A DNA stretch of 64,000 nt from an uncultured Candidatus Saccharibacteria bacterium (GCA_964478705.1 CAYZIR010000005.1:508-64507); one strand, 5' to 3'. Positions 24,559 through 50,163 are shown, counted from the stretch's first letter. Program-made: numbers and translations. The notes: generated from the sequence alone by a model not told the origin.

Positions 24559-24630
24559 GGCCTGGTAGACAAGTGGTAAGTCGAGGGACTGCAAATCCCT
24601 TATGCGGGAGTTCGATTCTCCCCCAGGCCT
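24559..24630 (+). tRNA. tRNA-Cys (anticodon GCA)
   Basis: GGCCTGG/CCAGGCC acceptor, loop CTGCAAA, TTCGATT. Confidence 0.88.
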
Positions 24631-24667
24631 CATGGAGATAGTCATGGGTCATTAGTTTTGTTGATAT

Positions 24668-24755
24668 GCCCGGGTGATGGAATTGGTAGACATACAGGAC
24701 TTAAAATCCTGGGGCCGTGAATTCGGTCGTGTGGGTTCGATTCCCACCCTGGGCA
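24668..24755 (+). tRNA. tRNA-Leu (anticodon TAA), long variable arm
   Basis: GCCCGGG acceptor, loop CTTAAAA, variable arm GGGCCGTGAATTCGGTCGTG, TTCGATT. Confidence 0.88.
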
Positions 24756-24757
24756 CT

Positions 24758-24916
24758 CGGAGGAAATTTAAACATTTTGATCGACGGTGGGAATCGAAGG
24801 CCGGAGGCGCGCCATTGGTCTGAGCGCCGACCTGCCTGCCGGCAGGCAGGGGCGGGGTCGAGAGTACTTAGAATTTTAGGCGCATAGCGACTAAAATACT
24901 TGAGTTGCTCGTGACC
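24758..24916 (+). repeat. 159-bp tRNA-3'-flanking element bounded by 19-bp direct repeats of the tRNA-Leu(TAA) 3' end
   Basis: GATTCCCACCCTGGGCACT at 24739..24757 and 24917..24935. Interior ..GGAATCGAAGGCCGGAGGCGCG..GGGGCGGGGTCGAGAGTACTTAGAATTTTAGGCGCATAGCGACTAAAATACTTGAG..CGTGACC is homologous to the tRNA-Phe element. Confidence 0.75.
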
Positions 24917-24960
24917 GATTCCCACCCTGGGCACTTACAGAATATTTTCAAAATAGGGCA

Positions 24961-25011
24961 CTTTGTTGTAGAGTTGTTTGTACCACCCATATAGACAACC
25001 TATATGGGTGG
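24961..25011 (+). repeat. GGTTGT-repeat plus tRNA-Lys 5'-end fragment embedded in an 11-bp palindrome
   Basis: TTGTTGTAGAGTTGTTTGT then ACCACCCATA (= tRNA-Lys nt -1 to 9), forming the palindrome CCACCCATATAG-ACAACC-TATATGGGTGG. Confidence 0.5.
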
Positions 25012-25153
25012 GGCGTGCGGACCACATGGCGTAGATAGCTCGGGCTCCCATTTTCTCGTGCTCAAGCAAAAATAAGAACAAGCTCTTATTTTTGCTCTCC
25101 ACTCGAAAACACGCCCTCGCTTGAGAGACACACCGCGTGTCATCCTTACTAAA

Positions 25154-25226
25154 CCACCCATAGCTCAGCTGGTAGAGCAGCTCCCTCTTAAGGAGACGGT
25201 CGTAGGTTCGATCCCTACTGGGTGGA
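25154..25226 (+). tRNA. tRNA-Lys (anticodon CTT)
   Basis: CCACCCA/TGGGTGG acceptor, loop CTCTTAA, TTCGATC. Confidence 0.8.
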
Positions 25227-25284
25227 CAGCGTTTAGAAAAAGCTTGGCAACTTGTAATGATATGCGATTCGCCTTTTGTCTGTC

Positions 25285-25323
25285 TTTGTTGTAGGTTGTC
25301 TGTTGTAGGTTGTTGGTTATTTC
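25285..25323 (+). repeat. GGTTGT-type tandem repeat abutting the tRNA-Leu(TAG) 5' end
   Basis: TTTGTTGTAGGTTGTCTGTTGTAGGTTGTTGGTTATTTC followed immediately by the tRNA. Confidence 0.7.
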
Positions 25324-25405
25324 GGGCGAGTGGCGAAATTGGTAGACGCGCTAGCCTTAGGAGCTAGTGTCGCAAGACATGGAGGTTCGAGTCCTCTCTC
25401 GCCCA
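25324..25405 (+). tRNA. tRNA-Leu (anticodon TAG), long variable arm
   Basis: GGGCGAG/CTCGCCC acceptor, loop CTTAGGA, TTCGAGT. Confidence 0.88.
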
Positions 25406-25570
25406 CAAAACAGAGAGCCGAGTGCGTCAGCATTCGGCAATTTTGTTTTGCGCGATTGAGAGAGGGCTCGAAGGGCGGAACCCCGCAGAGCGAGGTGAGC
25501 CGGGTCGAGAAATTTTTACGAGCGACGGCGAGTAAAAAAATGTTCTTGGCCGAATTCTCTCGGCCAAAGC
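25406..25570 (+). repeat. tRNA-Leu(TAG) 3'-flanking element with degenerate direct repeat
   Basis: Hairpin CAAAACAGAGAGCCGAGTGCGTCAGCATTCGGCAATTTTGTTTTG, module GGGCTCGAAGGGCGGAACCCCGCAGAGCGAGGTGAGCCGGGTCGAGAAA, motif ACGAGCGACGGCGAG. Degenerate repeat TCTCTCGGCCAAAGC (25556..25570) versus tRNA 3' TCTCTCGCCCACAAAAC. Followed by a perfect hairpin 25569..25597. Confidence 0.65.
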
Positions 25571-25686: not shown

Positions 25687-25754
25687 AGTCCCAGAAGCAC
25701 CTTTACAACCTGTACGAAAATTAACTCTTCCCTCTTGTGGGAAAGGAGCGGTTC

Positions 25755-26366
25755 ATGACTAAATTTACCAAGTGGTTGACTGGCGCATTCGCGGAACACG
25801 CGGTTGTCGCCGGAGGAATCGCCGCAGGAGGCAAACTTCTTCAAAGCTTAGCGGACGTAGGTGTGGAGAAGGCCGGGGAGGCAATCATGCGAAAGTTCAC
25901 AACAGAAGACAGGATGGAAGCAAACCAGCTTCTGACAAAGGCTCTCTACGATACGAGGCTGATACCACAAGAGCGCGAAGGCGCCAAGGTGGTCAACTTC
26001 TACTATGCCAACCTCGACCCTGATGGACGCGATCGATTCGAGCGTCTCGTGGGATATTCGTGGGCCGTCATGAAAGACGGCATTGGCGCGCTCGACCTCA
26101 AACAGGTCGAGAAGACCGAAGAGAGACCCCAGCAGAAGAAGGGTGAAGAACCGAAGCCGCTGAAGACGAAGACGGTCTTGATCCCCAACAACCCCCCTGA
26201 TCTTGCGTTCATGAAACACTGGACGCAAGTTGGGATGATGGGAGAAAAATTCATCATCCTTGAGCTCGACAAGCTCGACAAGTCATCGCCGTGGACCCGA
26301 GTAGTTTCCAGCGGAGAGGCAGTCATTGACTTCATCGATGGATTCACGAATGGAGAAAAGCGATGA
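25755..26366 (+). CDS. Hypothetical soluble protein (203 aa), first gene of an orphan two-gene operon
   Basis: AGGAG 8 nt before ATG 25755; GC-rich relative to neighbours; no recognisable domain. Stop TGA overlaps next start (ATGA). Confidence 0.55.
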   Translation: MTKFTKWLTGAFAEHAVVAGGIAAGGKLLQSLADVGVEKAGEAIMRKFTTEDRMEANQLLTKALYDTRLIPQEREGAKVVNFYYANLDPDGRDRFERLVGYSWAVMKDGIGALDLKQVEKTEERPQQKKGEEPKPLKTKTVLIPNNPPDLAFMKHWTQVGMMGEKFIILELDKLDKSSPWTRVVSSGEAVIDFIDGFTNGEKR

Positions 26367-27271
26367 GCACCACAAGCACAACTGCGCACCAGCGTGGGCA
26401 ACAGGCGCGACAGATCGTCAACAAGGGTGTTGGCGGTCTCGGTAAGCTCGGCGCTTTTGGGGGATGTCTCTTGGTTATTCTCTTCCTGCTTGTTTGCATC
26501 TTCATGATGTTCGCAACCGGAGGGATCGTGGGACTCTTCACTACCGCTGGTGGATCATATGCGGGCAGTGAAATCACTCAGCGCATGAGCATGAGTGCTG
26601 TCTTTGCTGTGCTCCTTCTCATGAGCGCTCCACTCGCCGCGCTCGCATTGAAATCACTTTTCGGAGTGAAGAATGCGAGACAGAGCTGGTTGGGATTCGT
26701 TGTTTCCATCCTCATGGCAGGACTCATGACATGGGGAGTCAGCCTGATTCCGATGTCTAGCCCACGTTGGGGTCAAATCGCAATGATTGGATTGTTCGTC
26801 TTGATGATTGGGGGGCTTCTCCAAATCTTCCTTGACGAAAAATTCCTACCACGACTACGAACATTTACACAGTTGGGATGGGTACTCCTTGCTGGCGCTC
26901 TCATCGTGAGTGTCGCCACATGGTGGGACTCCCGTCCAAGTGGACCAACGGGGGGAAACACACCGATTCAGCATCAATTCTCATCAAGTGCGAACTTCGC
27001 GTTCGTCTTGGAAAACGGCAAGACCATTGTGCTTGATGTCGAGGATCCGAGGTACAACCTCGACCCCGACAACAAATACGATGTGGTGTGGGACAACCCA
27101 GCATTCGGGTGCATGGAGGTGCTCTTTGCAGGGCGCCTCGTCTGCACCGACTGCGCTGAGAAGCGCGGAGAATGCAAGTATCGGCAAGACTCAGCAAAAA
27201 CGGTCTTATTCCGGCCACTGCACCGCGGGGACGTGGTGCACGTGAGCGGAATAATCACCGCACGACGTTGA
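26363..27271 (+). CDS. Hypothetical 4-TM membrane protein with Cys-containing C-terminal soluble domain (302 aa)
   Basis: Four hydrophobic helices (aa ~35-175), then soluble domain with CTDCAEKRGEC; no recognisable family. Confidence 0.55.
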   Translation: MSTTSTTAHQRGQQARQIVNKGVGGLGKLGAFGGCLLVILFLLVCIFMMFATGGIVGLFTTAGGSYAGSEITQRMSMSAVFAVLLLMSAPLAALALKSLFGVKNARQSWLGFVVSILMAGLMTWGVSLIPMSSPRWGQIAMIGLFVLMIGGLLQIFLDEKFLPRLRTFTQLGWVLLAGALIVSVATWWDSRPSGPTGGNTPIQHQFSSSANFAFVLENGKTIVLDVEDPRYNLDPDNKYDVVWDNPAFGCMEVLFAGRLVCTDCAEKRGECKYRQDSAKTVLFRPLHRGDVVHVSGIITARR

Positions 27272-27287
27272 TTCGTACAGGTAACAC

Positions 27288-27325
27288 AAAGGCCCGCGTG
27301 CACGCACGCGGGCCTTTTTTCTTTT
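27288..27325 (+). terminator. Strong rho-independent terminator
   Basis: AAAGGCCCGCGTGCACGCACGCGGGCCTTTTTTCTTTT. Confidence 0.8.
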
Positions 27326-27340
27326 GAAAGAAACCACCTA

Positions 27341-27658
27341 TCAGAGTCCTTCTTCGATTTTCAATTCTTGCGTCCCCTGAAATTTGTTTTTTACATCGTC
27401 GTAGTTCGCTGGCTTGTCAGCACCAATCGTACCGATAATGATATTGATGATACCGAATACGGACACCATGATCACCATGCCAACCATTCCCCAGATGATG
27501 TTATTTCTCCCCTTCTCTCGACCGTCGTCGCTATCGCTGTTTCTAATGAATTCGATAACGCCCCATATGAAGATGATGACTGCAACTCCGAAGAGCGCGA
27601 ACAGTAAGGGCTCGAGAATCGAATCGTAGATACGAGCAAGAAGCTGATCAACGGTCAT
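27341..27658 (-). CDS. Pilin-like two-TM small protein, paralog 7 (no signal peptide)
   Basis: Core FIWGVIEF..DGREKGRNNIIWGMVGMVIMVSVFGII matches paralogs 1-6. Confidence 0.45.
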   Translation of the reverse strand: MTVDQLLARIYDSILEPLLFALFGVAVIIFIWGVIEFIRNSDSDDGREKGRNNIIWGMVGMVIMVSVFGIINIIIGTIGADKPANYDDVKNKFQGTQELKIEEGL

Positions 27659-27667
27659 GGACGTTGA

Positions 27668-28018
27668 TTATCGCTGAACGCCTGGAACAGGAAGTGAACC
27701 TCCTGTCTGAACATCAAACGCATTTGCAATGAATTTGACGAGACCAACAACGGCAACCATCACGAAGAGTGCGATGATACCGTAAATCATCAATTGCTTT
27801 CCTTCTGAACTCTTGTCCTCGTCGCCCTGTGCGAAGATGAACTTCACCAAACCCCAGAAGAATGCGAGAAGTGCCAAACCAACAACGATAGGTGTTGCAA
27901 GGTTTACCAATCGTCCGATTGCTTGCACAAGGTTCTCGATATTACCGAGTGACTGTGCGCTCGCAAGCGACGGAAGAAATGCGAATGCCGCAAGAGCGAG
28001 TACTGAATACTTTTTCAT
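27668..28018 (-). CDS. Pilin-like small secreted two-TM protein, paralog 6 (VirB2/TrbC-like topology)
   Basis: Signal peptide (..LASAQS), TM1 ..IVVGLALLAFFWGLVKFIFAQGD, charged loop, TM2 MIYGIIALFVMVAVVGLVKF. Confidence 0.5.
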   Translation of the reverse strand: MKKYSVLALAAFAFLPSLASAQSLGNIENLVQAIGRLVNLATPIVVGLALLAFFWGLVKFIFAQGDEDKSSEGKQLMIYGIIALFVMVAVVGLVKFIANAFDVQTGGSLPVPGVQR

Positions 28019-28099
28019 AGTGTTACTGTTTTTGAATCTAATTGCCTTTTATGGCCTTGTAATACGTATAAGTAAACCACGCTATCCCTAAACTATCAA

Positions 28100-28510
28100 T
28101 CAGCGGTTGTTGAAAGCTGGAATGGTCGGTGGAGGTAGCCCTTGGTTGTTCCCTTGATTGGTCTCATTAATGCCAACCGCACGCTGAAGGAAGCGAACGA
28201 TACCGAAGACTGAAAACATGACGAAAAGCGCAATAACACCGTACGTCATAAGCGTTCTTCCGGCCTCCTTCTCTTTTGGATCCCCTGCTTTGATGATGAA
28301 TTTGACCAATCCAAAGAAAAATACGAGGAGTGCGAGGGATGCGAGAATGCCAATAGCGATATTGATAATCGAAGTAATACCATCAAGTAAATTACAGAGC
28401 GTTGGATTGAGTGCTCCGGTACAATTTACGATTGCTGCGTCCACCGCAAACGGTGTGAGCATGAGTGCAAGAATACCGAGCCCGAAAGAAATTTTGATAT
28501 ATCGTTTCAT
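28100..28510 (-). CDS. Pilin-like small secreted two-TM protein, paralog 5
   Basis: ..FFFGLVKFIIKAGDPKEKEAGRTLMTYGVIALFVMFSVFGIVRF.. Confidence 0.5.
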   Translation of the reverse strand: MKRYIKISFGLGILALMLTPFAVDAAIVNCTGALNPTLCNLLDGITSIINIAIGILASLALLVFFFGLVKFIIKAGDPKEKEAGRTLMTYGVIALFVMFSVFGIVRFLQRAVGINETNQGNNQGLPPPTIPAFNNR

Positions 28511-28530
28511 ACAATAATGATACTAAGCGC

Positions 28531-28851
28531 TTAATTAGGTAATAGTGCGTTCTTAAGGAATTGTACGATGCCCCAGAACGAAAACAAGACAAACAACCCG
28601 AGAATACCGTAGCCCATCGTGCTTTTTGCACTCAGCTTCTTCTTCTCATCGCCTGCATACAAGATGTATTGCACAACCCCCCACATAAAGAAGAGCACCG
28701 CGAGCGACGAGAGGAGACCAATCAACGGGTTGACGAGCCCTGTAAACATTTCAATCAGTTGTTTGAGATTTTGTGGGGCACCCGCTGCCACCGCACTTAT
28801 CGGCAGTACTGCGCCAAGCACCATACCTATTCGAGGGAAAAATTGTTTCAT
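28531..28851 (-). CDS. Pilin-like small secreted two-TM protein, paralog 4
   Basis: ..LFFMWGVVQYILYAGDEKKKLSAKSTMGYGILGLFVLFSFWGIVQF.. Confidence 0.5.
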   Translation of the reverse strand: MKQFFPRIGMVLGAVLPISAVAAGAPQNLKQLIEMFTGLVNPLIGLLSSLAVLFFMWGVVQYILYAGDEKKKLSAKSTMGYGILGLFVLFSFWGIVQFLKNALLPN

Positions 28852-28855
28852 ATGA

Positions 28856-29263
28856 TTATTTGAGCACTTCTGTCTTTGGCGTCGGTTCTTTTTTTAGGTC
28901 GTCGACGGTTCCTTTAATGACATTGGCAAGTACTGTTGCACCAAGTAAAATCGCCGCCCCAATGACGGTGTAAAGAAATGATTCCTTCGCTTTCTTAAGC
29001 TCATCTTTATTACCCCGCGCCTTCACGAAGAGAAATCCTGAGTAAATGATGAAAATTGCAACAACATAGAATCCAATTTCTGCCACTTTTTCTGAAATCG
29101 CAATGATTGCGCCTCCAAGGTCGTCACAGTTTTCACATGCAAGCGGGTTCTCTATACCTTTTACCTCACCTGTTCCAACACCTCCCTGAGCAAAGACTGC
29201 AACAGGAATCATAATAAAAAGTGCAAGAACCAAGCCAAAAATATGTCGTTTATATGATTTCAT
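28856..29263 (-). CDS. Pilin-like small secreted two-TM protein, paralog 3
   Basis: Signal peptide ..AVFAQG; ..FYVVAIFIIYSGFLFVKARGNKDELKKAKESFLYTVIGAAILLGATVL.. Confidence 0.45.
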   Translation of the reverse strand: MKSYKRHIFGLVLALFIMIPVAVFAQGGVGTGEVKGIENPLACENCDDLGGAIIAISEKVAEIGFYVVAIFIIYSGFLFVKARGNKDELKKAKESFLYTVIGAAILLGATVLANVIKGTVDDLKKEPTPKTEVLK

Positions 29264-29690
29264 GAATACTATCTATTCTACCTTGTTTCTGAAAAACCTC
29301 ATCCACATCGGTATCCAAAAAGAAGTTCGTGAAGAGATTCACAATCAGCCACGCTGAAAATGTTATGGTAAGACCCCAAAATACATTCTGAAAGATCTTT
29401 TGTGCCTTACCTCGGTCTCCTGGGTTAGCGCTCGATGTTAGGTAGAGAAACCCTGCCCACGAGAAGAGAATTGCTGAGAGTGGAATCGCGATTGTCATCA
29501 AAAAATCAATGACGTTCTCGATGAGTGTTATAAAGTCAAGAAAATTACAATCCGGCCCTGCACATGGCACAAGGCCACCCGCACCAGGTATAGGATCCGC
29601 TGCCAAGACCGCCATCGGAACGAATATAAGACATATAAGCGCTATTGAGACCGCAATGCCACGGCAACGCATGTTCATATGCTCTTTCAT
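29250..29690 (-). CDS. Pilin-like small secreted two-TM protein, paralog 2
   Basis: Start reset to ATG 29690 (MKEHMNMRCRG..). Signal peptide ..AVLAADP; two TM with loop ..SSANPGDRGKAQK. Confidence 0.4.
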   Translation of the reverse strand: MKEHMNMRCRGIAVSIALICLIFVPMAVLAADPIPGAGGLVPCAGPDCNFLDFITLIENVIDFLMTIAIPLSAILFSWAGFLYLTSSANPGDRGKAQKIFQNVFWGLTITFSAWLIVNLFTNFFLDTDVDEVFQKQGRIDSIHEII

Positions 29691-29763
29691 ATATCCTTGC
29701 ATTGTATCGTAGAACATACGGTAACCACGCACGATAGAATCAAAAGAAGTGGACAACTGCCCT

Positions 29764-31059
29764 CTATCGGATCTCTGCACCCAAACGTGCTGACACATCC
29801 GCTACGGCGCGAGAAATCGAGAGACGCCCCGATGTGATATTGGCGACCATGTCAGAGAACGCCTTGTCTGTTTCAGACGAATTTGGGTCGAGAAATGCCG
29901 ATGCAATCAATGCTTCGTCGTAAAAAAGTGCTTGATAGGGGTCTTGAGGTTCACCAGCGAGCAAATCACGACGCACTGGAGGAAGATTCATCTTTTCGCT
30001 CCACAACGCCCCGGCGTCTGAGCCAGAGAGCAACGTCATGACACGAAAGGCACCCGCGACATTATCTGTCTGTTTTACGATAGCAATGCCATATATTCTT
30101 CCGAACGTTGTCACAAAGGAACTTTCACGAATCTGTGGAATGGCCGTCACATCGAAGTCGAGATTCGGATTTTTGTCACGGATTGCGAAGAGTTCGCTTG
30201 CAAAACCGAGGTACAGAGCAAGATCGCCTCGAATAAAGAAATCTTGGGAACGCGGAAGCGCTCTATTCCATGAGTAGAGTGGCTTAACGGGATTTGCAAA
30301 TTCCGTATAAAAACGAAGTGCAGAATCTGCTGGTGCCTCAGGAAGACCTAAGTCATCCGCGATGATGACACCTAAACGATTTCCTGCATCACGAAGCGTG
30401 ATAGGATTGCCCGCTTGCATGATTAAGGTTGCGATGATTTCTCGCGCATGATCAACGTTGCCGTATTCACCGAGTGCAATGACACTTTGGAGCACATTGA
30501 ACGAATCATCCACCTTAGTGAGTTTTGGATGGAAGTCGACAAGTTCATCCCAGAAGCGCGGTGGCTCAGGCAATCTCGCTGTATTCAATAACGTTCTGTT
30601 CCAGTACATCATCAGAGGATCGACGAGGATTGGAAGGCCGAGAATCCCATTCCGAGAGACAAAAATCTCTGATCCTTGTGTGTAGGTGTCACGAAAGAGG
30701 CGTTCGGTGATTGATTCAAACGGCACGGTGTAGAGCTTGTCTTCATACTCTGCAAGATGATCCCCTTGTACGATAATCGCATCGGGTCCGGTTCCTGATG
30801 CAAGGGCGTCAATCAACTCTTGCTTAAATTCGGCCTCCGAAAATGCCTCGTAGGTCACTTGTAGAGCACCACTCTGTGCTTCGTTGTATTTACTGACCAC
30901 TGAATTCACGATATCCGCTGGCAGGGTTCCCCAGACAATCGCTTCAGCAGGAACATCCTCACCACTACCGCCTGATTTACCGAACGTCGCAATAACAATA
31001 ACGCCGGCAACAATAAAAAAACCAAAAATACCGAGGAGTACTGACTGAAATGTACGCAT
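29764..31059 (-). CDS. Membrane-anchored extracellular solute-binding protein (ABC-transporter SBP family 1-like)
   Basis: N-terminal TM anchor then ~400-aa periplasmic-binding-protein fold; first gene of the minus-strand unit containing the pilin-like array. Confidence 0.55.
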   Translation of the reverse strand: MRTFQSVLLGIFGFFIVAGVIVIATFGKSGGSGEDVPAEAIVWGTLPADIVNSVVSKYNEAQSGALQVTYEAFSEAEFKQELIDALASGTGPDAIIVQGDHLAEYEDKLYTVPFESITERLFRDTYTQGSEIFVSRNGILGLPILVDPLMMYWNRTLLNTARLPEPPRFWDELVDFHPKLTKVDDSFNVLQSVIALGEYGNVDHAREIIATLIMQAGNPITLRDAGNRLGVIIADDLGLPEAPADSALRFYTEFANPVKPLYSWNRALPRSQDFFIRGDLALYLGFASELFAIRDKNPNLDFDVTAIPQIRESSFVTTFGRIYGIAIVKQTDNVAGAFRVMTLLSGSDAGALWSEKMNLPPVRRDLLAGEPQDPYQALFYDEALIASAFLDPNSSETDKAFSDMVANITSGRLSISRAVADVSARLGAEIR

Positions 31060-31113: not shown

Positions 31114-31650
31114 CTAGTGATGGGCAGATTTCCGCAACAGAAGACCGTAGTGGTGTTCTCCCGCATCAATCTTTTTTTCAAAAGTAAATCCAGCTTTTTC
31201 TGCAAGCATGCGTGCGGTCTCTTCTGAGACAACCTGATCCGGATGCGGACCCATCATCCCAAACGATTCCTTCCAGTCGACAATGAGCATTCGACCGAGC
31301 GGACGCAAAATACGGTATGCTTCAACAAGCAATTGTGCCTTATGTTCTATCTGAAATAATGTGTTGCTCAAGAGCACGAGATCAACAATTCCATCGGCAA
31401 GCGTTGTGCCCTTGGGTTCCTCAAGATCCGCCCAGATAGGGTGAAGATTTGAAATGTTTTCTTCTCGAGCTTCTTTGGCCAGTCGTGTAACTAAATCTTT
31501 TTGCACATCAAGTGCATATATCGTGCTTTGCGCTCCTGCATGTTTCACTAATTCCCGCGCATGCACACCGCTTCCGGTTCCCAAGTCGGCGATGACCATA
31601 CCATCACTCACACCTATCTGCCGAAGAATATCGTTTGGATGAGAAATCAT
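31114..31650 (-). CDS. Class I SAM-dependent methyltransferase
   Basis: Motif I VIADLGTGSGVHA, motif post-I LDVQKD. Confidence 0.7.
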   Translation of the reverse strand: MISHPNDILRQIGVSDGMVIADLGTGSGVHARELVKHAGAQSTIYALDVQKDLVTRLAKEAREENISNLHPIWADLEEPKGTTLADGIVDLVLLSNTLFQIEHKAQLLVEAYRILRPLGRMLIVDWKESFGMMGPHPDQVVSEETARMLAEKAGFTFEKKIDAGEHHYGLLLRKSAHH

Positions 31651-31712
31651 ACAAAAATAATAACGCCTCTTCACCAATTGTCTACCTGCCGTTGGTTGTC
31701 AGCTATTGGTTT

Positions 31713-36693: not shown

Positions 36694-37998
36694 CTATACA
36701 GGAAGGTTAACTGGCGGTTCAGCCTTACGTGATTCGATACGACCAAATGTTGGTGTTTGGGCAACACCTCCTGGGAAGTGATAAATTGTTGCGAGCTCTT
36801 CAGTGTTCAACACAAACGTCTTGCTCTTGTGCGGTGGATGAAAATATCCGCGAGCGCGATAGGCGTCGAACATTTCTTTTTTCATACTCGCGAGCTTTTT
36901 GCCGAATGGATCTTGGAACCAATAGTCAAATCCCGTACCACGAAACTTCTTGAACCCGTTCAAATGCTGACTACTATACTGCGCAAGCACACCATTCAAG
37001 GCGCCCTTGTTCGCTGAATTGAATTTGTCTTTCTCAGCAAGATACAGTGCACGAATTCCAACATCGAAGCCAAGCTTTGAAATACTACGCTCGAGTGCAT
37101 TCACAATATCTTTCTCAAAGGTTGTGAGGTTAATCGGCCCACCTTCTTCTCCGTCCTTACCTTGGATGCGTCGTTTCTTGATGATTGATTCAATTTCTTT
37201 TTTCACGTCATCTTTCCACTTATCAGTCGGTTTCATTTGATCACCCACTTTCTTACCAATATCAAAAATATCTTCTATCTTCTTAATGCCTGAAAAGAGA
37301 CCTCCCTCTTTTTTATCTTCTGCTTTGTGTGCACGAACAACAATCTGAATCCATGCTTGTTCTCCCTGCCCCAATCCACCGAGGTATTCAATCACCGGCG
37401 TTATTGGGTCAATCTTAAATTCTTCTTTAGGATCACGATCCATACCGTAGTCGACATATGTTTTGATAGGATATGGATCACCTTTTGTGAGTTGAAATTC
37501 GGCAGCAGAAATGTCTGCCGTGTCTTTGTCGTAAAGAAACGCGAGTGTATAGTCAGGTACTTCAACAACCTCCGTTGTCGGATACTGTGCATAAATATTG
37601 TTTTGGATGCTCTTAACGCCACCCTTCCATGTCCAAATAAAAAACTTCACGCGTCCTTCAAGCGAGACCAATTCAAGTGACGACCATCCCCGAACACCTC
37701 CCTTCCAGTACTTATCTTTCCATGTACCTTCACCACCGGTGTTATAGAGCGAATTGAGCACAATCTCCATGGCAACCGGTGATTTGTTTACTTCTTTTGG
37801 CACCCGGATTTCGAGGAGCACTGGCTCTTGCGACAAAATATACATCGTTCGTCGCCATCGCATCCATGCAATGCAAAAACCATAAACAAGAACAATCGGT
37901 AGCCACACGGGTGACGCGAGAAGAATAAAGCGAACCGCTGGCCAGAGTGCCACACCTGCATCTACGAAATACGAAATCATATGCCTATGATAGCGCAT
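36694..37998 (-). CDS. Hypothetical 2-TM membrane protein with large extracytoplasmic domain (434 aa)
   Basis: Two N-terminal TM helices then ~370-aa Lys/Asp-rich domain; no P-loop or recognised motif. Confidence 0.4.
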   Translation of the reverse strand: MRYHRHMISYFVDAGVALWPAVRFILLASPVWLPIVLVYGFCIAWMRWRRTMYILSQEPVLLEIRVPKEVNKSPVAMEIVLNSLYNTGGEGTWKDKYWKGGVRGWSSLELVSLEGRVKFFIWTWKGGVKSIQNNIYAQYPTTEVVEVPDYTLAFLYDKDTADISAAEFQLTKGDPYPIKTYVDYGMDRDPKEEFKIDPITPVIEYLGGLGQGEQAWIQIVVRAHKAEDKKEGGLFSGIKKIEDIFDIGKKVGDQMKPTDKWKDDVKKEIESIIKKRRIQGKDGEEGGPINLTTFEKDIVNALERSISKLGFDVGIRALYLAEKDKFNSANKGALNGVLAQYSSQHLNGFKKFRGTGFDYWFQDPFGKKLASMKKEMFDAYRARGYFHPPHKSKTFVLNTEELATIYHFPGGVAQTPTFGRIESRKAEPPVNLPV

Positions 37999-39204: not shown

Positions 39205-42108
39205 TTACCCCTCCCTCACCACGAGGTTAAGGACCTTGTTCTTAATATAGACAATTTTGGCTATATCCTTGCCGTTAAGCCATTTTTCGATGTTTTCCTC
39301 GCCCCGAGCCAAGGCAAGAACGGTCGCTTCCTCGGTATCTCGAGAGCAGGTTATCGTTCCCCTGACCTTTCCATTGACCTGAATGGCTATAACGACCTCA
39401 GCCTCAACAAGCTTGTCCGAATCGAAGGTAGGCCACAAAGCCTCGTGAACTGATGACGTATTGCCCATGCTCTCCCAGAGCTCTTCCGTGAGGAACGGTG
39501 CGAATGGTGCCAAAAGGAGTAGGAGCGTAGTATATGCCGTGCGAGAAACAGCCGTCTCTTTTTCGATTGCATTCGTTAGAATCATGAGTTGCGAGACTGC
39601 TGTGTTCATACGAAGTGCTTCGATATCCTCCCCCACTTTCTTGATGGTTTGATTGAGGACCGTTTCAAGCTCAGGCGACAACACGACGTCCTCGACTCTT
39701 TCCTGCAGACGCGCAACGCGTTCAAGAAAGCGTCGTACACCAACGAGTCCATCGGTTGACCACGCGATCGCTTGATCGAACGGTCCCATGAACATCTCAT
39801 ACGTGCGGAGCGCATCTGCACCAAAGCGTTCAATAATGTCATCCGGGTTTACCACGTTCCCTTTCGACTTACTCATTTTCTCCCCGCCTTCGGCGAGAAT
39901 GAGTCCGTGGCTCGTACGCCGTTGGTATGGCTCAGATGTTGGAACAACGCCAATGTCGTAGAGAAACTTATGCCAAAAGCGCGAATAGAGAAGGTGAAGC
40001 GTTGTGTGCTCCATACCACCGTTGTACCAATCAACCGGAAGCCAGTGCTCAAGTTTTTTCTTGTCGGCGAGTACTTCCGCATTCTTCGGATCGCAGTAGC
40101 GAAGGTAATACCATGATGAACCTGCCCAGTTTGGCATAACATCGGTTTCTCGTTTCGCATTACCACCGCACGACGGACATGTCGTATTGACCCACTCATC
40201 CATGTTCGCGAGAGGTGAATCCCCTGTGTCAGTTGGTTCGTAGCGCTCAACGTGTGGTAGTTCTACCGGAAGGTCGGATTCGGAGACCGGCACCCATCCG
40301 CACGATTCGCAGTTGACCATTGGAATCGGTTCGCCCCAGTAGCGTTGACGTGAGAAGACCCAATCACGGAGTTTATATTTCGTCGTCCATGTGCCACCAA
40401 CTGCTTCAGTTATTTTTTTCCTTGCATCTTCACTGGCTAGACCATCAAATTGTTCAGAGTTGAGAAGTATTCCTTCACCAGTGTAAGATTGCTGACCGCC
40501 CACATAAAACTCCGCATATTTTTTGTGGTGTGGCCACGTAATCGTTGAAATAAGTTTGTCCTTTGAAACAACGATGAGTTCGTGTCTCCCCTCTTCTACT
40601 TCTGACTGTGAACGTTCTGTGGAGTTTAGAATAATTTCAATGGCAGGGCCGAGTGTTCGCTGATTTTTATTTTTTGTGTGTCGATATCCATGACAAGAAA
40701 TCATTGAGGTCATTGAATGCATGTTCACTTCAAAATCTGTGAATCCTGTTTCTTCAATAACCTCTCTGCGAACTGCGGTCAGAAGATCCTCGCCATCTTC
40801 AACTCCTCCACCCACCAAGTGGACATGATCTCCATCTTTAAGAAGGTAGAAGTTCCCCATGGTATCGTGAATGATTGCATCAACAGTTCGTCGGTTTAAC
40901 GTTTCGAGACCGGCACGCTCTTGGTGTATTCCCGCCCCTATTTCTTGATATGCGACTACCTGTCGCATAGGCAAATTAAATTTCTGTGCAAACGCGAAAT
41001 CACGTTCATCGTGTGCAGGGACCGCCATCACCGCACCGGTGCCGTACGAACCAAGCACGTAATCCGCAACATACACAGGAATCTCTTCATTGTTCGCAGG
41101 ATTGATTGCTGTAATACCTTCGAGCCGAACACCAGTCTTTTCTTTCCCTTCCGCGGTACGTTCCATTTCTTCCTTATTCTTTGCCTCTTCGATATATCGC
41201 AGAATCTCTTCTCTGTTCTTTATCGACTCATGACTAGCGACTAATGACTGCACCAAGGGGTGCTCAGGTGCTAAAACGATGTAGGTAGCGCCGAAGATGG
41301 TATCTGGTCTGGTTGTAAAAACAGTGATTTCTTTTTTCTCGCCCCCAGTAGCTAGAACCTGGAATCTGATCTCAGCTCCTTCGCTCTTGCCAATCCAATT
41401 ACGTTGTCCTGCTTTAGCCCGCTCAATATAGTCAACGGTGTCGAGGTCATCGTAGAGGCGTTCGGCGTATTTTGTGATCGCAAGCATCCATTGCTCTCGT
41501 TCGCGTTTCTCAACCTCCGTCCCACATCGCTCACACTTACCATCAACAACCTCTTCGTTTGCGAGACCGATTTTATCTTTCGGACACCAATTAATGGGAA
41601 CTTTTGATTTGTATGCAAGATCGTGTTTGAAGAGTTGCAAGAAAATCCATTGCGTAAAGCGGTAGTATGCGGGGTCAGTTGTGTTTACCTCACGCTCCCA
41701 ATCAAAGGAGAGTGCTAAGCGCTTCATCTGTGCGCGGTAATTGTCGGTATTTTCTTTTGTTACCTCACGTGGATCGCGTCCGACCTTGATTGCATAGTTC
41801 TCTGTAGGAAGACCGAAGGCGTCCCAACCAATTGGATAGAGCACATTCTCCCCTTGTCTGCGACGCTTACGAGCAACGACGTCGAGTGCAGTGTAGCCAC
41901 GAACATGACCGACATGGAGCCCTTCTCCTGACGGAAAGGGAAATTCGACGAGTAAGTATGTTTTCTTTTTATCCGCGCTATCGGACGCTTTGGGGGCACT
42001 CTTCTCAAAGATTTCGCGCCATTTCTCTTCAATCTGTTTGGAATCGTATTCGCGCATGAATAGCTTATAGCTTCTAGGTACGAGCGTGTAGGTAGGGACA
42101 TCATACAA
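39205..42108 (-). CDS. leuS: Leucyl-tRNA synthetase with inserted NUDIX hydrolase domain
   Basis: HVGHVRGY (HIGH), KMSKSKGNVV, CP1 editing domain (TTRPDT..YVLGSYGTGAVMAVPAHDERDFAFA). Inserted ~150 aa (aa ~385-535, nt ~40506..40956) contains Nudix box GGGVEDGEDLLTAVRREVIEETG. Confidence 0.9.
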   Translation of the reverse strand: MYDVPTYTLVPRSYKLFMREYDSKQIEEKWREIFEKSAPKASDSADKKKTYLLVEFPFPSGEGLHVGHVRGYTALDVVARKRRRQGENVLYPIGWDAFGLPTENYAIKVGRDPREVTKENTDNYRAQMKRLALSFDWEREVNTTDPAYYRFTQWIFLQLFKHDLAYKSKVPINWCPKDKIGLANEEVVDGKCERCGTEVEKREREQWMLAITKYAERLYDDLDTVDYIERAKAGQRNWIGKSEGAEIRFQVLATGGEKKEITVFTTRPDTIFGATYIVLAPEHPLVQSLVASHESIKNREEILRYIEEAKNKEEMERTAEGKEKTGVRLEGITAINPANNEEIPVYVADYVLGSYGTGAVMAVPAHDERDFAFAQKFNLPMRQVVAYQEIGAGIHQERAGLETLNRRTVDAIIHDTMGNFYLLKDGDHVHLVGGGVEDGEDLLTAVRREVIEETGFTDFEVNMHSMTSMISCHGYRHTKNKNQRTLGPAIEIILNSTERSQSEVEEGRHELIVVSKDKLISTITWPHHKKYAEFYVGGQQSYTGEGILLNSEQFDGLASEDARKKITEAVGGTWTTKYKLRDWVFSRQRYWGEPIPMVNCESCGWVPVSESDLPVELPHVERYEPTDTGDSPLANMDEWVNTTCPSCGGNAKRETDVMPNWAGSSWYYLRYCDPKNAEVLADKKKLEHWLPVDWYNGGMEHTTLHLLYSRFWHKFLYDIGVVPTSEPYQRRTSHGLILAEGGEKMSKSKGNVVNPDDIIERFGADALRTYEMFMGPFDQAIAWSTDGLVGVRRFLERVARLQERVEDVVLSPELETVLNQTIKKVGEDIEALRMNTAVSQLMILTNAIEKETAVSRTAYTTLLLLLAPFAPFLTEELWESMGNTSSVHEALWPTFDSDKLVEAEVVIAIQVNGKVRGTITCSRDTEEATVLALARGEENIEKWLNGKDIAKIVYIKNKVLNLVVREG

Positions 42109-45749: not shown

Positions 45750-48700
45750 TTACGAGCGGGTATTTTCGACTGTTTCTGGAGCAAATGCGTACGCACCACC
45801 AATTGATCGAAGAGAGCGTTCTTTCAGCATGTCGAGAACTCGCACAAGTGAAAGGCGAACTGACGTATAGGCTGAGTCATAACGTTCGTCAACACCATGA
45901 AGGAGCTCTGCGACGATTGATTCAAGTTCTTTATTCGAGAGATGGTAGGTCACTTCAGCGATGTGCGTATTCACACGGGTTCGCTCTTCTGCGCCCTCAA
46001 GTCGTGCACGATGTGCACTGTCGAGTTCAGAAACCACCTTGCGCATGAAGTCGGCGACCGGCTGTTCTTGATGCTTCAACATTCGAAGGAAGGTAAAGAC
46101 CTTTTTGTCTTCGCCTCGGACAATCCATTCAACAAAGATTGGAATCATCGAGAGTGTTGAGATGAAGAGTGATTCACGAACACGCTCTTTATCAAGAACC
46201 AACCAACCATCTTCACGAGGGAAACGACCCTTTGCGATTTCGATTACCTGCGAGAGGCGCTCGAGGGCTTTCTTTTCATCGTTCTCAACTGAATTGCCGA
46301 TGAGTTCTGCTCCATCATCAGAAACCAAGACTCGTGATACTCGTGCTTCGTTCTGAATGCGAGAATAATCGCGTCGAGCAGGTTGTTCGGTCATTCGGGT
46401 ATCAACAAACGCTGGTGTAGAGGTTTTCTCAACAACTGGTGTTGATACTGACGCAAGTGCATCTGGAGCTTGTGCTACCGGTCGTGAGAATGATTCATGC
46501 ATGCGTGATTCTTGTACAATTTCACGAATAGACTGAACACGGGCTGGCGCACTTGCTGTGACCGTATGTGCGAACTCTTCGTATGAGGCGAGAGGTTCAT
46601 GAGCAGACGATTCGTACTCAGCGTCCATAGATGGCGCTACGTTTGTGAATCGCTGTCCTGACTTGCGGAGAAACGCGTATACAACACCTGCTGAGATTGC
46701 CACGAGACCAAGAATAAAGAGAATGATTTGGACAATACTTGAGCCAAGACCAGTGTATGGAACTTGTGTGAGCGAAATCGATGCTCCCAAGACTTCTGGT
46801 TCAGAGAAGAGCACAACGCTCGGTCGGCGACGGTGTCCGCCACCCCCACCACCTCCATCATCATCGTCATCGTCATCATCATCATCGTCGTCATCTCCAG
46901 GAGTTTTGACAACAACACTACCCTTACATGCAATGCCACCACTTGGTCCAGTGAACGAAGCAATGTAAACAGTGTCTACCGTTGGCTTTGTTGTTGTTGA
47001 ACCATTCAGTGGAACTGGTCCGATACCCTGATCAATCGTCGCTGATGTGACATTCTTTGATGTCCACGTGAGTGTTACTGTCTCGCCACTCTGAATAGAG
47101 TTTGGACTTACATCGAGCGTACACTCAGGAACCGGCTCGCTTGAAGGAATAGTGAATTTCACACCTGCATTACAGTAGTTGCGCCCAGGGGTGAAGTTTG
47201 GATCAACCCAAAATGAGTACGTGCGACCTGGCTTGACCGGAACGTTCGTAACAGTTGCTCCGGTGATTCCGTCTTCACAATAGTAGTGAGGGCTTGCACC
47301 ATCAAGACAGGTTTTGAAGCGTGGGTCATCGTAGCGGTCGGTCGTACCGTCATCAAGGCGAATATTGTATGAGACCGCACCTGGAACTGGATTCCACGAG
47401 AGCGTGACGGTGTTTGTATCTGCAGGAAGTGTTCCTGACGGGAAGAGATTTGTTGGGGGAATACAGATGGGGCTGTCAGTCACCGTAATCGTGAGGGTCT
47501 GAGTAATCGCACATTCAGCACCGCTATTCGCAGATGTTGCCTTAACGAGGTATGTGTATGTACCAACCGCAGTAACTGTTCCCGAAATCGTTGCGCCATT
47601 GATCGAGAGACCTGGAGCAGCATTCACCGCTGTGATAACGATTGAGACAGGAGCGATACCACCCGACGTCGTCACCGTGTGTGAGAACGGAAGATTAAGA
47701 CCGGCAACCGCTGTGTTTGAACTTGTGATGGCTGGTTTTGCAGGACACTGGTTGGTCTGGCCAACAGTGATTGTAAAGACCTGACGTGTCGCACATGAAA
47801 GTGTGCTGTTACCACCGCTCATCGCAGTGACCTCGTAGGTGTACACACCAGGGGTCGTTGGCGTACCCGACACTGTCGAAGCACTCGTGTCGATCACCAA
47901 GCCCGGTGCAGCAGGACCAATAGGATTAATGCTGATTGAAATCGGATTCACACCGCCTGTGGTTGTCACTTTGTAGAAGTACGGAACACCAAGCATCGCT
48001 GTTGCTGAAGGAGTGCTTGTGATCGTCGGTTGAACAGGACACTCATTGACTCCGTCGCCAATGATGATTGTCAGAGTTTGTGTTGGACCACACGCAGAGT
48101 CACCATCAGCATTTTGTGCCTTGATCGAATAGGTGTATGTGCCGGTTTGTGTTGGCGTACCTGAGATTGTCTTACCGTTGATTGAGAGACCAGGAGCAGG
48201 ATTGACCGGTGTGATTGTTACAACAGTGCCAAGACCGCCCGCGGTTGTTACGGTGTGTGAGAAAAGCTGACCAACCTGACCCGATGCTGACGCAGGACTT
48301 GTGATGGTCGGCTGACCTACCGGACACTGTGGAGGAGGCACGATCGTAACTGAACACTGTACGGTCTTTGTCTGACTCTTAAACGTTACTGCAACCGTCG
48401 CAGTTTTAGTTCCAACAGTTGTGTATGTGTGAACGACTGGGTTTGTCGTCGAACCATCAGGGAACGTATCATTACCGTTCCAAAGATATGAGAATGCACC
48501 CGTAACACCCGTAATTGTCGCAGTCCATGTTACTGGTTCGCCAATTTTTGCAGGGTTCGGGAGACCGACACACACAAGATCCCAATCAGGATCCTGCGAA
48601 CAGAGTGGGAGCTGCTGGTAGACCTGACCTTTGATGAGCTTTGCAGACGATGAATAGTTTGAGTTTCCTGGGAATGAGACGACATCGAGCTGATAGCGAC

Positions 48701-49199
48701 ATGACGGAAGGTCGACGCGGAAGCTCTTGGTCTGACCAGGGCCAATTGTTTTTTCGTCAGAATCAAAAAGTGTCTGAGGAATCTGGTGAATCGGATCTGA
48801 ATAGACTTGGAAAACTTTCAATGCAAATGGGAACGAACATGTTGGGTGTTCGTTGGTAATTGAGACAGTACCACCTGCAAGATCAAAAGTGTTGTAGATC
48901 TTGAAGTACTGGTCACGAAGCTGACGCAACTCAAAGTCGCTTGCTGGAATACAATCGTCGACTGTCGTTTCTTGACCACCGTCGCCAGGGGCAGGATCGA
49001 CGGGTTCGTCTTCTTTTGGTGCGGGTTCAACAGGTGTAGGCTCTGGTGCTGGGTCAGCCTTCTCTTCTTTTGTTTCTTCGGCAGTCGTGCCACTCGTGTC
49101 TCCACTTTCTTCAGCGGTTACGGCGAACGGAATTTGCCAAGCAACAAAAACCACAAACGCGAGAATTGCGAGTGTTTTGAGGACTGAAATACGTGTCAT
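45750..49199 (-). CDS. Large single-pass surface protein: signal peptide, Pro/Glu linker, four Ig-like repeats, FnIII-like domain, poly-Asp/poly-Gly tract, TM helix, ~330-aa cytoplasmic domain
   Basis: Four ~95-aa repeats (QCPVGQPTITSPASASGQVGQLFSHTVTTAGG..; ECPVQPTITSTPSATAMLGVPYFYKVTTTGG..; QCPAKPAITSSNTAVAGLNLPFSHTVTTSGG..). D13-G7-HRRRP tract encoded at ~46800..46900; VPYTG then TM then RK; start set at MTRISV (49199). Confidence 0.7.
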   Translation of the reverse strand: MTRISVLKTLAILAFVVFVAWQIPFAVTAEESGDTSGTTAEETKEEKADPAPEPTPVEPAPKEDEPVDPAPGDGGQETTVDDCIPASDFELRQLRDQYFKIYNTFDLAGGTVSITNEHPTCSFPFALKVFQVYSDPIHQIPQTLFDSDEKTIGPGQTKSFRVDLPSCRYQLDVVSFPGNSNYSSSAKLIKGQVYQQLPLCSQDPDWDLVCVGLPNPAKIGEPVTWTATITGVTGAFSYLWNGNDTFPDGSTTNPVVHTYTTVGTKTATVAVTFKSQTKTVQCSVTIVPPPQCPVGQPTITSPASASGQVGQLFSHTVTTAGGLGTVVTITPVNPAPGLSINGKTISGTPTQTGTYTYSIKAQNADGDSACGPTQTLTIIIGDGVNECPVQPTITSTPSATAMLGVPYFYKVTTTGGVNPISISINPIGPAAPGLVIDTSASTVSGTPTTPGVYTYEVTAMSGGNSTLSCATRQVFTITVGQTNQCPAKPAITSSNTAVAGLNLPFSHTVTTSGGIAPVSIVITAVNAAPGLSINGATISGTVTAVGTYTYLVKATSANSGAECAITQTLTITVTDSPICIPPTNLFPSGTLPADTNTVTLSWNPVPGAVSYNIRLDDGTTDRYDDPRFKTCLDGASPHYYCEDGITGATVTNVPVKPGRTYSFWVDPNFTPGRNYCNAGVKFTIPSSEPVPECTLDVSPNSIQSGETVTLTWTSKNVTSATIDQGIGPVPLNGSTTTKPTVDTVYIASFTGPSGGIACKGSVVVKTPGDDDDDDDDDDDDDGGGGGGGHRRRPSVVLFSEPEVLGASISLTQVPYTGLGSSIVQIILFILGLVAISAGVVYAFLRKSGQRFTNVAPSMDAEYESSAHEPLASYEEFAHTVTASAPARVQSIREIVQESRMHESFSRPVAQAPDALASVSTPVVEKTSTPAFVDTRMTEQPARRDYSRIQNEARVSRVLVSDDGAELIGNSVENDEKKALERLSQVIEIAKGRFPREDGWLVLDKERVRESLFISTLSMIPIFVEWIVRGEDKKVFTFLRMLKHQEQPVADFMRKVVSELDSAHRARLEGAEERTRVNTHIAEVTYHLSNKELESIVAELLHGVDERYDSAYTSVRLSLVRVLDMLKERSLRSIGGAYAFAPETVENTRS

Positions 49200-49273
49200 A
49201 TATGCGTTACTCATAGTCTGTAGAAATAAAACCCACACCAGTAATCGTAGAATCAATTATACACCTAATAATA

Positions 49274-49906
49274 TTATCCGTCAAGTGCTTCATCTGCTAT
49301 CGGATACGCACCAACAAATTCTGCTGAAACAACATATCGCTCTTCTTTTGCACCAAATACGTTACACGTCGCAAGCGTCAGCATCTTCACCGAGCTACGG
49401 AGATTGATTTCGGCCTCTTCGGCATTGACCAATCCGACACTTTTGACGCGATAGAGGTATTCTTTCCCTTCTGACTGCACGCGAATCACATCATTCTCTT
49501 TGAGATTTTTCAAACCATTGAATACCTTATACGCTTGATTGTTGACGACACGAAATCCTGTTGAGTGGCCAAGGAGAAACATATTGCTCGTATCTTCAAG
49601 ATCACCCGACCCTGGGTAATGTACAACGCCCTCCATGAGTGCTGCATCAAGCGCTTCAATCGAGCGTGACACCGGATTCATAATCTTTGCGTCAACATCG
49701 ATAGCATCAATAATGATCCGAACTGGCGCATCATCATATGCCAACGGAGCTGTGGTGTCTGTCGTCGTACTCAATGATACTGAAGAGTTTTCCTGTGCAA
49801 TATCGAGTTTCGGCATAATGCCCAATGACCATGAGAGTGCAAGGAGAATTGAGAATAGAAAGAACCACGTGACACCAACCGTCACAGGTCGTTGCTGTGC
49901 AAGCAT
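49274..49906 (-). CDS. Sortase family transpeptidase
   Basis: N-terminal TM, conserved His (MFLLGHSTGF), active-site TLATC (LTLATCNVFG), Arg downstream. Directly upstream of the surface-protein gene. Confidence 0.7.
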   Translation of the reverse strand: MLAQQRPVTVGVTWFFLFSILLALSWSLGIMPKLDIAQENSSVSLSTTTDTTAPLAYDDAPVRIIIDAIDVDAKIMNPVSRSIEALDAALMEGVVHYPGSGDLEDTSNMFLLGHSTGFRVVNNQAYKVFNGLKNLKENDVIRVQSEGKEYLYRVKSVGLVNAEEAEINLRSSVKMLTLATCNVFGAKEERYVVSAEFVGAYPIADEALDG

Positions 49907-50163
49907 AATGAAACCCTCCACAGCGTAGAGTGGAGAGTTTTTCGAGATGTTTGTTGGTCGAAATACCTTCTGCATATGGGTCGTATCTAGAGAATCAATG
50001 ATATCATAATTTATATAAAAGTCAAGTATCCCCTGTATCTACCGCCACGGTACTTTTTTGAGTCATAGAGCAAACCTTGACATTGTTTTAAAATCGTATA
50101 TAATGCTCGCACCTATCGGTTTTTCGAAGCCGAGGCCATTGTTAGAGGGTTTTAGAAAATTAT

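Follow-up and report, generated by a model that had tools for sequence, protein, structure and literature searches.

To our knowledge, the ultrasmall Patescibacteria do not synthesise nucleotides, lipids or amino acids for themselves. How they draw on their hosts for material is a question that still awaits an answer. In the only species so far studied genetically, a type IV secretion system (T4SS) and an unexpected array of pilin genes are essential. A locus that touches this question lies in a 64,000-nucleotide stretch of DNA (CAYZIR010000005.1:508-64507), the whole of which we refer to as the window. For positions 27341-31059, an earlier note on the window had described a string of co-directional minus-strand genes and proposed that they encode pilins. 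What are these proteins, and do they work with the solute-binding protein (SBP) encoded at the head of the string?

The gene string is present and includes the SBP gene; all long open reading frames (ORFs) in the interval are on the minus strand. The earlier note counted seven small genes for proteins with two transmembrane (TM) segments. The tandem array stands but the count does not. There are six such genes, W1 to W6, at 27341-29690, downstream of the SBP gene. In order of transcription, the genes are as follows.

29764-31059, minus strand: SBP, 431 amino acids (aa), first gene of the SBP-pilin module
29250-29690, minus strand: W6, 146 aa with the start used in the earlier note, 141-155 aa depending on the start chosen; the longest ORF is 182 aa
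28856-29263, minus strand: W5, 135 aa
28531-28851, minus strand: W4, 106 aa
28100-28510, minus strand: W3, 136 aa
27668-28018, minus strand: W2, 116 aa
27341-27658, minus strand: W1, 105 aa

A gene caller run independently on two public Logan contigs, identical to the window, also placed six pilin genes after the SBP gene.

We lean towards the view that the six small proteins are specialised subunits of a T4SS-dependent surface structure, co-expressed with a glycan-binding receptor. It is close to certain that the six genes are members of the VirB2-related T4SS_pilin family (PF18895). This is the best Pfam match of all six proteins, and the sole one above cut-off. Against a curated gathering threshold of 26.6 bits, the scores are 31.2 (W1), 43.9 (W2), 32.4 (W3), 40.1 (W4), 27.8 (W5) and 35.0 (W6) bits. 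The alignments begin at profile positions 4-12 and run through position 71 of 71. Pfam calls precomputed for the identical Logan contigs give the same picture. The core expected of the family, which has ~70 residues with two hydrophobic helices and a short polar loop, is evident from hydropathy and from the hairpin in an AlphaFold2 (AF2) model. With all six proteins above the PF18895 cut-off, and W5 close to that of TrbC, the VirB2/TrbC pilin topology and family recognised in the earlier note are borne out.

Judged by profile similarity, the window pilins are likely homologous to TrbC (PF04956), but W5, the nearest, is not a formal member. It scores 25.0 bits (E = 2.3e-5, profile positions 11-97 of 98), below the gathering threshold of 27.9 bits. 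For a wider family search, we gathered 144 array members from related genomes. PF18895 was found in 141 of these, and TrbC matched 23 of the 144 at E <= 1e-3 (best 6.6e-9). A profile search of PDB sequences with the pilins gave nothing significant, with the pKM101 TraM pilin (8cw4) at E = 0.7. Nor did tblastn with W5 and W1 find a match among 72,556 plasmids. Hence, likeness to plasmid pilins is visible at the profile level only. All six proteins also match, weakly, the NCBIfam model NF045849 (E 6e-10 to 2e-3), a 'pilin-like conjugal transfer protein' of Mycoplasma integrative and conjugative elements (ICEs). The closest is W1, at 38.6 bits over profile positions 12-80 of 80. The proteins in question, Mbov_0395 and ICE_MMCAP2_0565, are likewise small two-helix proteins of a monoderm MPF-FATA-type system. 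Unlike the window pilins, which are encoded by a chromosomal array and all score below the 40-bit threshold of the model, they are products of a single gene in a mobile element. When a library of 1.84 billion cluster representatives was searched with a profile built from the six paralogs, 65,528 of them matched at E <= 1e-3; by this sequence count, the family is very large.

Could the small proteins be two-TM proteins of some other kind, such as a holin, an MscL-like channel, a bacteriocin-immunity protein or a phage protein? Generic two-TM proteins weakly match many membrane families, and one homolog carries the automatic label 'small-conductance mechanosensitive channel'. The earlier note had named placement in a holin-like or MscL-like family as one outcome that would overturn its proposal. 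Instead, profile searches gave PF18895 for every protein with no rival above cut-off, and comparison of the window pilins with PHROGs and PADLOC produced no meaningful match to a phage, holin or defence family. The neighbouring genes are chromosomal housekeeping genes, not those of a prophage. We consider a non-pilin identity barely credible, and at the family level the profile evidence effectively refutes it.

The proteins share a common plan. In W2 to W6, the N-terminus is positive and leads into a hydrophobic core with an AXA-type cleavage site, and two hydrophobic helices follow. W1 has two hydrophobic segments only, and no signal peptide. These calls were made with a hydropathy and AXA heuristic devised for this analysis, not with SignalP. 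The earlier note had listed six cleavable signal peptides; five were found, and W1 is without. The motifs quoted in that note are present in W2, which carries FFWGLVKFI, AQGDEDKSSEGKQ and MIYGIIALFVM, but the other paralogs have only degenerate versions. An AF2 model of W2 has a signal-peptide helix, then a long hairpin of helices 24-62 and 67-100, with a predicted local distance difference test (pLDDT) score above 85 in the core.

Beyond this plan, the six proteins fall into types. W6, at array position 1, and W5, at position 2, both carry a signal peptide. A Cys pair precedes the hairpin in W6 (PCAGPDC), and W5 also has one (ACENC); W5 is the most TrbC/VirB2-like of the six. W4, W3 and W2 are mutually related, and we call them the core type. 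W4 has a signal peptide and is 40-45% identical to W3 and W2. W3 adds to its signal peptide a Cys pair and a C-terminal tail rich in Pro. W2 is the top family match, and its signal peptide probably ends at ASA|Q.

Along related arrays, the order of types is the W6-type with its Cys pair, the TrbC-like W5-type, the core type and the leaderless W1-type. The W6-type is first in nearly all of these arrays and the W1-type is last in most, and there are between 1 and 5 core-type copies per genome. In the related locus L003, the positional orthologs of W6, W5, W4, W3, W2 and W1 are 58, 52, 60, 51, 61 and 55% identical to their counterparts in the window. Pairwise, the window paralogs share only 21-45% identity with each other. 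The same pattern, with orthologs closer than paralogs, is found in more distant genomes, and W2 orthologs retain 56-72% identity across ~120 clusters. These comparisons show, at the sequence level, that the paralogs are ancient, individually conserved and fixed in order. They resemble distinct components of a single structure, as opposed to antigenic variants.

The earlier note had put the divergence of the paralogs down to diversifying selection on a filament subunit. In that explanation the six proteins would be interchangeable variants, generated by selection or recombination, which allow antigenic or host-range variation as proposed for the VirB2 paralogs of Bartonella and Anaplasma. The low identity between paralogs and the varying number of core-type genes would fit, and the same suggestion has been made for arrays of Patescibacteria (PMC12102498). 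However, the positional orthologs are about as conserved as the SBP (61% identical in L003), so the pilins evolve no faster than their neighbours. Their rate of divergence is close to that of the SBP and of a neighbouring methyltransferase, and faster than that of GyrA. The conserved order of types across the clade, and the conservation of W2 orthologs, also run counter to free exchange of subunits. We also looked for recombination-driven variation, which the earlier note had raised. There were no DNA repeats longer than 23 nt linking the paralogs. Only matches of ~20 nt were seen, in register with the coding sequence for the conserved helices; hence, there is neither a sign of recent duplication nor a tract for gene conversion. 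The two Logan contigs, which come from independent sequencing runs, are identical to the window; with two copies only, no variation was measurable. Taken together, orthology, the lack of repeats and the identical copies argue against diversifying selection or cassette recombination, and favour specialised, non-interchangeable subunits. We regard the variation model as very unlikely.

We turn to the protein encoded at the head of the array. The SBP matches the Pfam families SBP_bac_8 (66.2 bits) and SBP_bac_1 (64.5 bits), above their thresholds. In an AF2 model (pLDDT 85, predicted TM-score 0.83), a TM helix at residues 2-25 is followed by a flexible linker, modelled with low confidence, and a confident two-lobe fold. 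The best Foldseek matches were Atu4361, which binds sucrose and maltotriose, CpMnBP1, which binds mannotriose, and binders of maltodextrin and sophoro-oligosaccharide. E-values were ~1e-22 to 1e-20 (best 1.3e-22), with 14-20% identity and a TM-score of ~0.7. A profile search of the PDB was consistent with this (4r9f, MBP1, at 6.7e-17). The SBP is thus predicted, from the model and its matches, to be a membrane-tethered, MalE-like (family 1) oligosaccharide binder. It shares its two-lobe fold and its SBP_bac_1/SBP_bac_8 families with the MalE-type SBPs of ABC importers (Atu4361, 4qrz/4rjz; CpMnBP1, 4r9f/4r9g). It differs from them in its low sequence identity, and in having a conserved TM helix as a tether instead of a lipid anchor. 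Within that anchor (residues 1-25), F4, F12 and G19 are invariant in 24 homologs that share 41-65% identity overall. Such invariance is unusual for a simple tether. It hints that the SBP anchor may make specific contacts inside the membrane.

Is the pairing of this SBP with a pilin array peculiar to the window? A scan for SBP relatives, using one genome per species, gave at least 580 stretches, of which the best 80 were examined. Sixty of these loci have 3 kb or more of sequence beyond the SBP gene. Every one of the 60 carries a pilin array on the same strand, immediately after that gene. These arrays have 3-8 genes, usually 5-7, and the gap between SBP and array is mostly -30 to +100 nt; in locus L004, the SBP stop codon overlaps the first pilin start. 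A search started from a pilin recovers the same context. On these grounds, recurrence downstream of an orthologous SBP in dozens of genomes, scores for a single family and the identity between paralogs indicate that the array is more than chance. MalE-type SBPs of importers differ again here, since the window-type SBP always precedes a pilin array and has no adjoining permease and ATPase genes. We found neither BPD_transp nor ABC_tran in the 64-kb window or in the Pfam-annotated flanks of L003, L004, L005 and L086, and no cognate permease and ATPase genes lie beside the SBP gene in any of these.

Pilin arrays as such are already described for Patescibacteria, and the earlier note was mistaken in treating this one as new (PMC10633639, PMC12102498, PMC12857230). 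Wang et al. (2023; PMC10633639) described six PF18895 genes in Southlakia epibionticum, SEML1_0014-0019, all of which are essential. In the tables of that paper, these genes adjoin VirB6-like, PrgI and TraC/VirB4-like genes. Using PF18895 and PF04956 as queries on 3,035 genomes, Quinonero-Coronel et al. (2025; PMC12102498) reported 441 arrays of 2-11 genes, with a mean identity of 25% and a maximum of 54%. They found a pilin gene near virB4 in 1,135 of 1,948 assemblies, and away from virB4 in ~40%; VirB4 itself is present in most Patescibacteria. A role for the arrays in adapting to different hosts was suggested. Of the unknown genes expressed in Paceibacterales enrichment cultures, those for T4SS pilins rank among the most strongly expressed (PMC10936435).

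The window array resembles the published ones in its Pfam family, in its Patescibacterium host and in the low identity of its paralogs. Like the S. epibionticum array, whose products are ~100-185 aa, it has six genes in tandem. The definition of an array used in PMC12102498 is at least two PF18895 or PF04956 genes in tandem or one gene apart; the window has six in a row. Proximity to virB4, which is typical of those arrays and not required, is lacking. Unlike the arrays of both papers, the window array is outside a T4SS cluster, with no VirB4 within 27-33 kb in the window, and it is headed by a conserved membrane-tethered SBP. The S. epibionticum array is inside a T4SS cluster and has no SBP. 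The types and order conserved across the clade argue against the antigenic-variation idea of PMC12102498. In the papers on patescibacterial pilin arrays consulted here, we found no mention of an SBP partner. The SBP as a constant partner, and the fixed order of pilin types, may therefore be new; the array type itself is not.

Similarities with the TrbC/VirB2 pilins of diderm bacteria (PF04956; for example the pKM101 TraM pilus) extend beyond profile scores. Both have a long signal peptide, a helix, a short charged loop and a second helix, with the signal peptide ahead of the hairpin predicted by our heuristic for W2 to W6 and not for W1. Conversely, the diderm systems have one major pilin, whereas here there are several specialised paralogs in a monoderm host, and the pilin genes are not beside T4SS genes.

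Several observations weigh against the reading that we favour. Comparison with solved pilin structures was non-discriminating, because thousands of helical hairpins match equally well; the T4SS_pilin assignment rests on profile matches and topology for this reason. No VirB4-, VirB6- or VirD4-like ORF was found among the long ORFs of the 64-kb window, which is cut from a 64,589-bp contig, and no gene for these proteins lies within 10 kb of the module in the 80 relatives. Walker-A ORFs in the flanks of those relatives were considered as VirB4 candidates and proved to be SMC, an ABC ATPase and surface proteins. With no T4SS gene nearby, it is membership of the family and the precedent in Saccharibacteria that connect the pilins to a T4SS. 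A pilus built of these proteins is not known from any Patescibacterium, and a 2025 review calls it only an 'intriguing possibility' (PMC12857230). Finally, the downstream flank varies among the related loci, but a Lactamase_B_3-GyrA-methyltransferase block upstream of the SBP gene is conserved as well. Because of this block, part of the adjacency of SBP and pilins could be inherited gene order.

That last point can be taken further. The SBP may have nothing to do with the pilins and may instead serve a sugar ABC importer encoded elsewhere, its position being a frozen, GyrA-proximal gene order; the pilins would still belong to a T4SS. Upstream, Lactamase_B_3, GyrA and the methyltransferase are nearly as constant as the SBP, and homologs of the SBP carry the annotations of ordinary SBPs for sugar or glycerol-3-phosphate. 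However, the adjacency persists where the methyltransferase gene is lost and where the downstream flank differs. The intergenic gaps are tiny or overlapping, the strand is the same in every case, and the lack of a nearby permease gene is unusual for SBP genes. An unrelated SBP is thus unlikely in our view, with an appreciable chance of being correct.

A further alternative does without the T4SS. The six hairpins might form a complex of fixed stoichiometry with ~12 TM helices which, together with the tethered SBP, acts as a channel or uptake device in place of an ABC permease. The strict adjacency of SBP and array in all 60 loci fits such a device, as do the invariant residues of the SBP anchor and the absence of permease, ATPase and VirB4 genes nearby. 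Gene fusions outside the window are also relevant. The top matches of the pilin profile are natural fusions with 2-16 tandem hairpin domains behind a single N-terminal signal peptide, such as P0241 (552 aa, six repeats) and P0261 (1,775 aa, 16 matched stretches), and also P0242 and P0244. Since the linkers differ, these look like real 'poly-pilins' and not read-through artefacts. Fusions of 3, 6 and up to 16 pilin domains suggest side-by-side work. Polymerisation would still be open to fused pilins, since a VirB2-type pilus has both pilin termini on its outer surface. The family kinship with TrbC/VirB2 and with ICE pilin-like proteins, and a Saccharibacteria array of the same kind inside a T4SS cluster without an SBP, point back to secretion. 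A gene number of 3-8 is a poor fit to a rigid channel, and no energy source is evident. We think a T4SS-independent device quite unlikely.

A more speculative variant would merge the parts. In Paceibacteria, the tethered glycan-binding SBP and the ordered VirB2-like hairpin proteins would then be one dedicated surface machine at the point of host contact, a binding-protein-dependent route for uptake or recognition made from T4SS pilin parts and not from an ABC permease. Paralogs in fixed positions would form a conduit, maybe a hetero-oligomeric layer or stack, as the 3-, 6- and 16-domain fusions hint. The SBP would dock through its conserved TM helix, and would capture host oligosaccharides or gate the conduit. 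We would call this distinctly improbable.

How, then, would specialised subunits of a T4SS-dependent structure operate? The proposed transcription unit would comprise the SBP gene, W6, W5, W4, W3, W2 and W1, possibly with the methyltransferase gene ahead of them, and would end at a terminator. From their sequences, W2 to W6 would leave by the Sec route and lose their signal peptides to signal peptidase I. Each of the six proteins would sit in the membrane as an alpha-helical hairpin whose two ends lie outside the cell and whose short charged loop lies within it. A monoderm-type T4SS (VirB4, TrsD, PrgI and VirB6) encoded elsewhere would, if the literature is a guide, extract the pilins from the membrane. 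The pilins could then be built into one heteromeric surface structure, either a short pilus or a conduit. In such a structure, the core type (W4, W3 and W2) might provide the bulk subunit, and W6, W5 and leaderless W1 could be specialised base, tip or initiator subunits. The precedent would be the six-gene array of S. epibionticum, within its essential T4SS cluster. The SBP would be co-expressed with the array and probably be sited at the same place on the surface, as a sensor, an adhesin or a device to capture host glycans. By analogy with these systems, assembly of the pilins probably depends on a T4SS. That the product is a true extended pilus is more doubtful, and we put it at a little below an even chance.

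The locus adds constraints for a second and much larger class, the Paceibacteria, in which the paralogs are fixed, ordered and individually conserved. Pilin arrays of this class can be encoded far from virB4, always paired with a putative membrane-tethered oligosaccharide-binding protein. Should the pairing be functional, it names a candidate ligand-recognition component of the system, and the soluble SBP domain, which could be screened on glycan arrays, would be an easy biochemical handle. Models of an essential, unexplained system are constrained by the poly-pilin fusions, and by an SBP-pilin module that keeps its subunit order across the clade and lies apart from virB4.

The arrangement of genes bears on their co-expression. 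The spacing between small genes is -14 to +82 nt. The 3' end of W6 overlaps the start of W5 by 14 nt (29250-29263), and genes 1 and 2 overlap in the same way in L003, L008 and L009, which suggests that the first two pilin types are translationally coupled. Three further features flank the module.

31114-31677, minus strand: class I S-adenosylmethionine-dependent methyltransferase (MT; Pfam Methyltransf_31/11/25), ~178 aa from the likely start
31657-31684, minus strand: sigma-70-like promoter match TAGACA-16-TATTAT, just 5' of the MT ATG
27288-27317, no strand assigned: predicted hairpin terminator, a perfect 14-bp GC-rich stem with T and A runs either side

The promoter match agrees with the consensus at 10 of 12 positions in a consensus scan alone, and this weak evidence makes it a possible start of an MT-SBP-pilin transcription unit. 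In most of the 80 related loci, the MT gene lies 515-790 nt upstream of the SBP start, and it is missing in ~9. The MT stop codon abuts the SBP start in L003, L004 and L005. MT may share an operon with the SBP-pilin genes. At the other end, the arms of the hairpin are 100% complementary in a repeat scan, and it sits between the array and a convergent plus-strand gene at 26363-27271. It is the single strong terminator of the locus, of the intrinsic type and predicted to be bidirectional, ending both the array and this convergent gene.

Two overlapping plus-strand genes, at 25737-26366 and 26363-27271, converge on the array. One encodes a polytopic membrane protein of 302 aa whose C-terminal domain is rich in Cys. 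The pair was considered as possible VirB6-like partners of the pilins and placed outside the module; neither gene matches a Pfam or NCBIfam family, and relatives do not share them. Other genomes have unrelated, likewise unannotated genes at the position of the 25737-27271 pair.

The rest of the window has the character of chromosomal housekeeping DNA. It encodes GyrA, GyrB, two class-I tRNA synthetases, ribonucleotide reductase, ClpB, IF-2 and MurJ, together with ribosomal proteins, a sortase, a DUF5671 protein and ten tRNAs. DUF5671 and other genes of the window are typical of the Candidate Phyla Radiation (CPR). The SBP and pilin homologs all come from metagenome-assembled genomes of Patescibacteria/CPR, under the names Pacebacteria, Campbellbacteria, Wolfebacteria, Zambryskibacteria, Taylorbacteria and Paceibacterota. 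Judging by these homologs and the gene content, the locus sits in a Patescibacteria chromosome of the Paceibacteria/Parcubacteria type.

A number of minor features were seen elsewhere in the window. Four clustered tRNA genes (Cys, Leu-taa, Lys-ctt, Leu-tag), at 24559-25406 on the plus strand, separate rbfA from the unannotated convergent pair. Two tRNA synthetases have inserted domains. In leucyl-tRNA synthetase (39205-42108, minus strand), a NUDIX domain at residues ~405-482 is inserted after the editing domain, as it is in the L003 ortholog. The phenylalanyl-tRNA synthetase beta chain (55557-57950, minus strand) has an NlpC/P60 peptidase-like insert at residues ~350-421, between B3_4 and B5. 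A 1,168-aa protein without a Pfam match (45750-49256, minus strand) is encoded next to the sortase gene (49274-49975, minus strand). Its N-terminus is a signal or TM segment, and another region is acidic and rich in Pro; at the C-terminus no canonical LPXTG was seen, and there is an internal VPYTG only. Finally, the minus-strand gene at 36694-37998 encodes a 434-aa protein without a Pfam match, the L003 and L086 orthologs of which are pre-labelled DUF8128. The gene is conserved between those for a sigma-70-r4/HARE-HTH protein and YceG.

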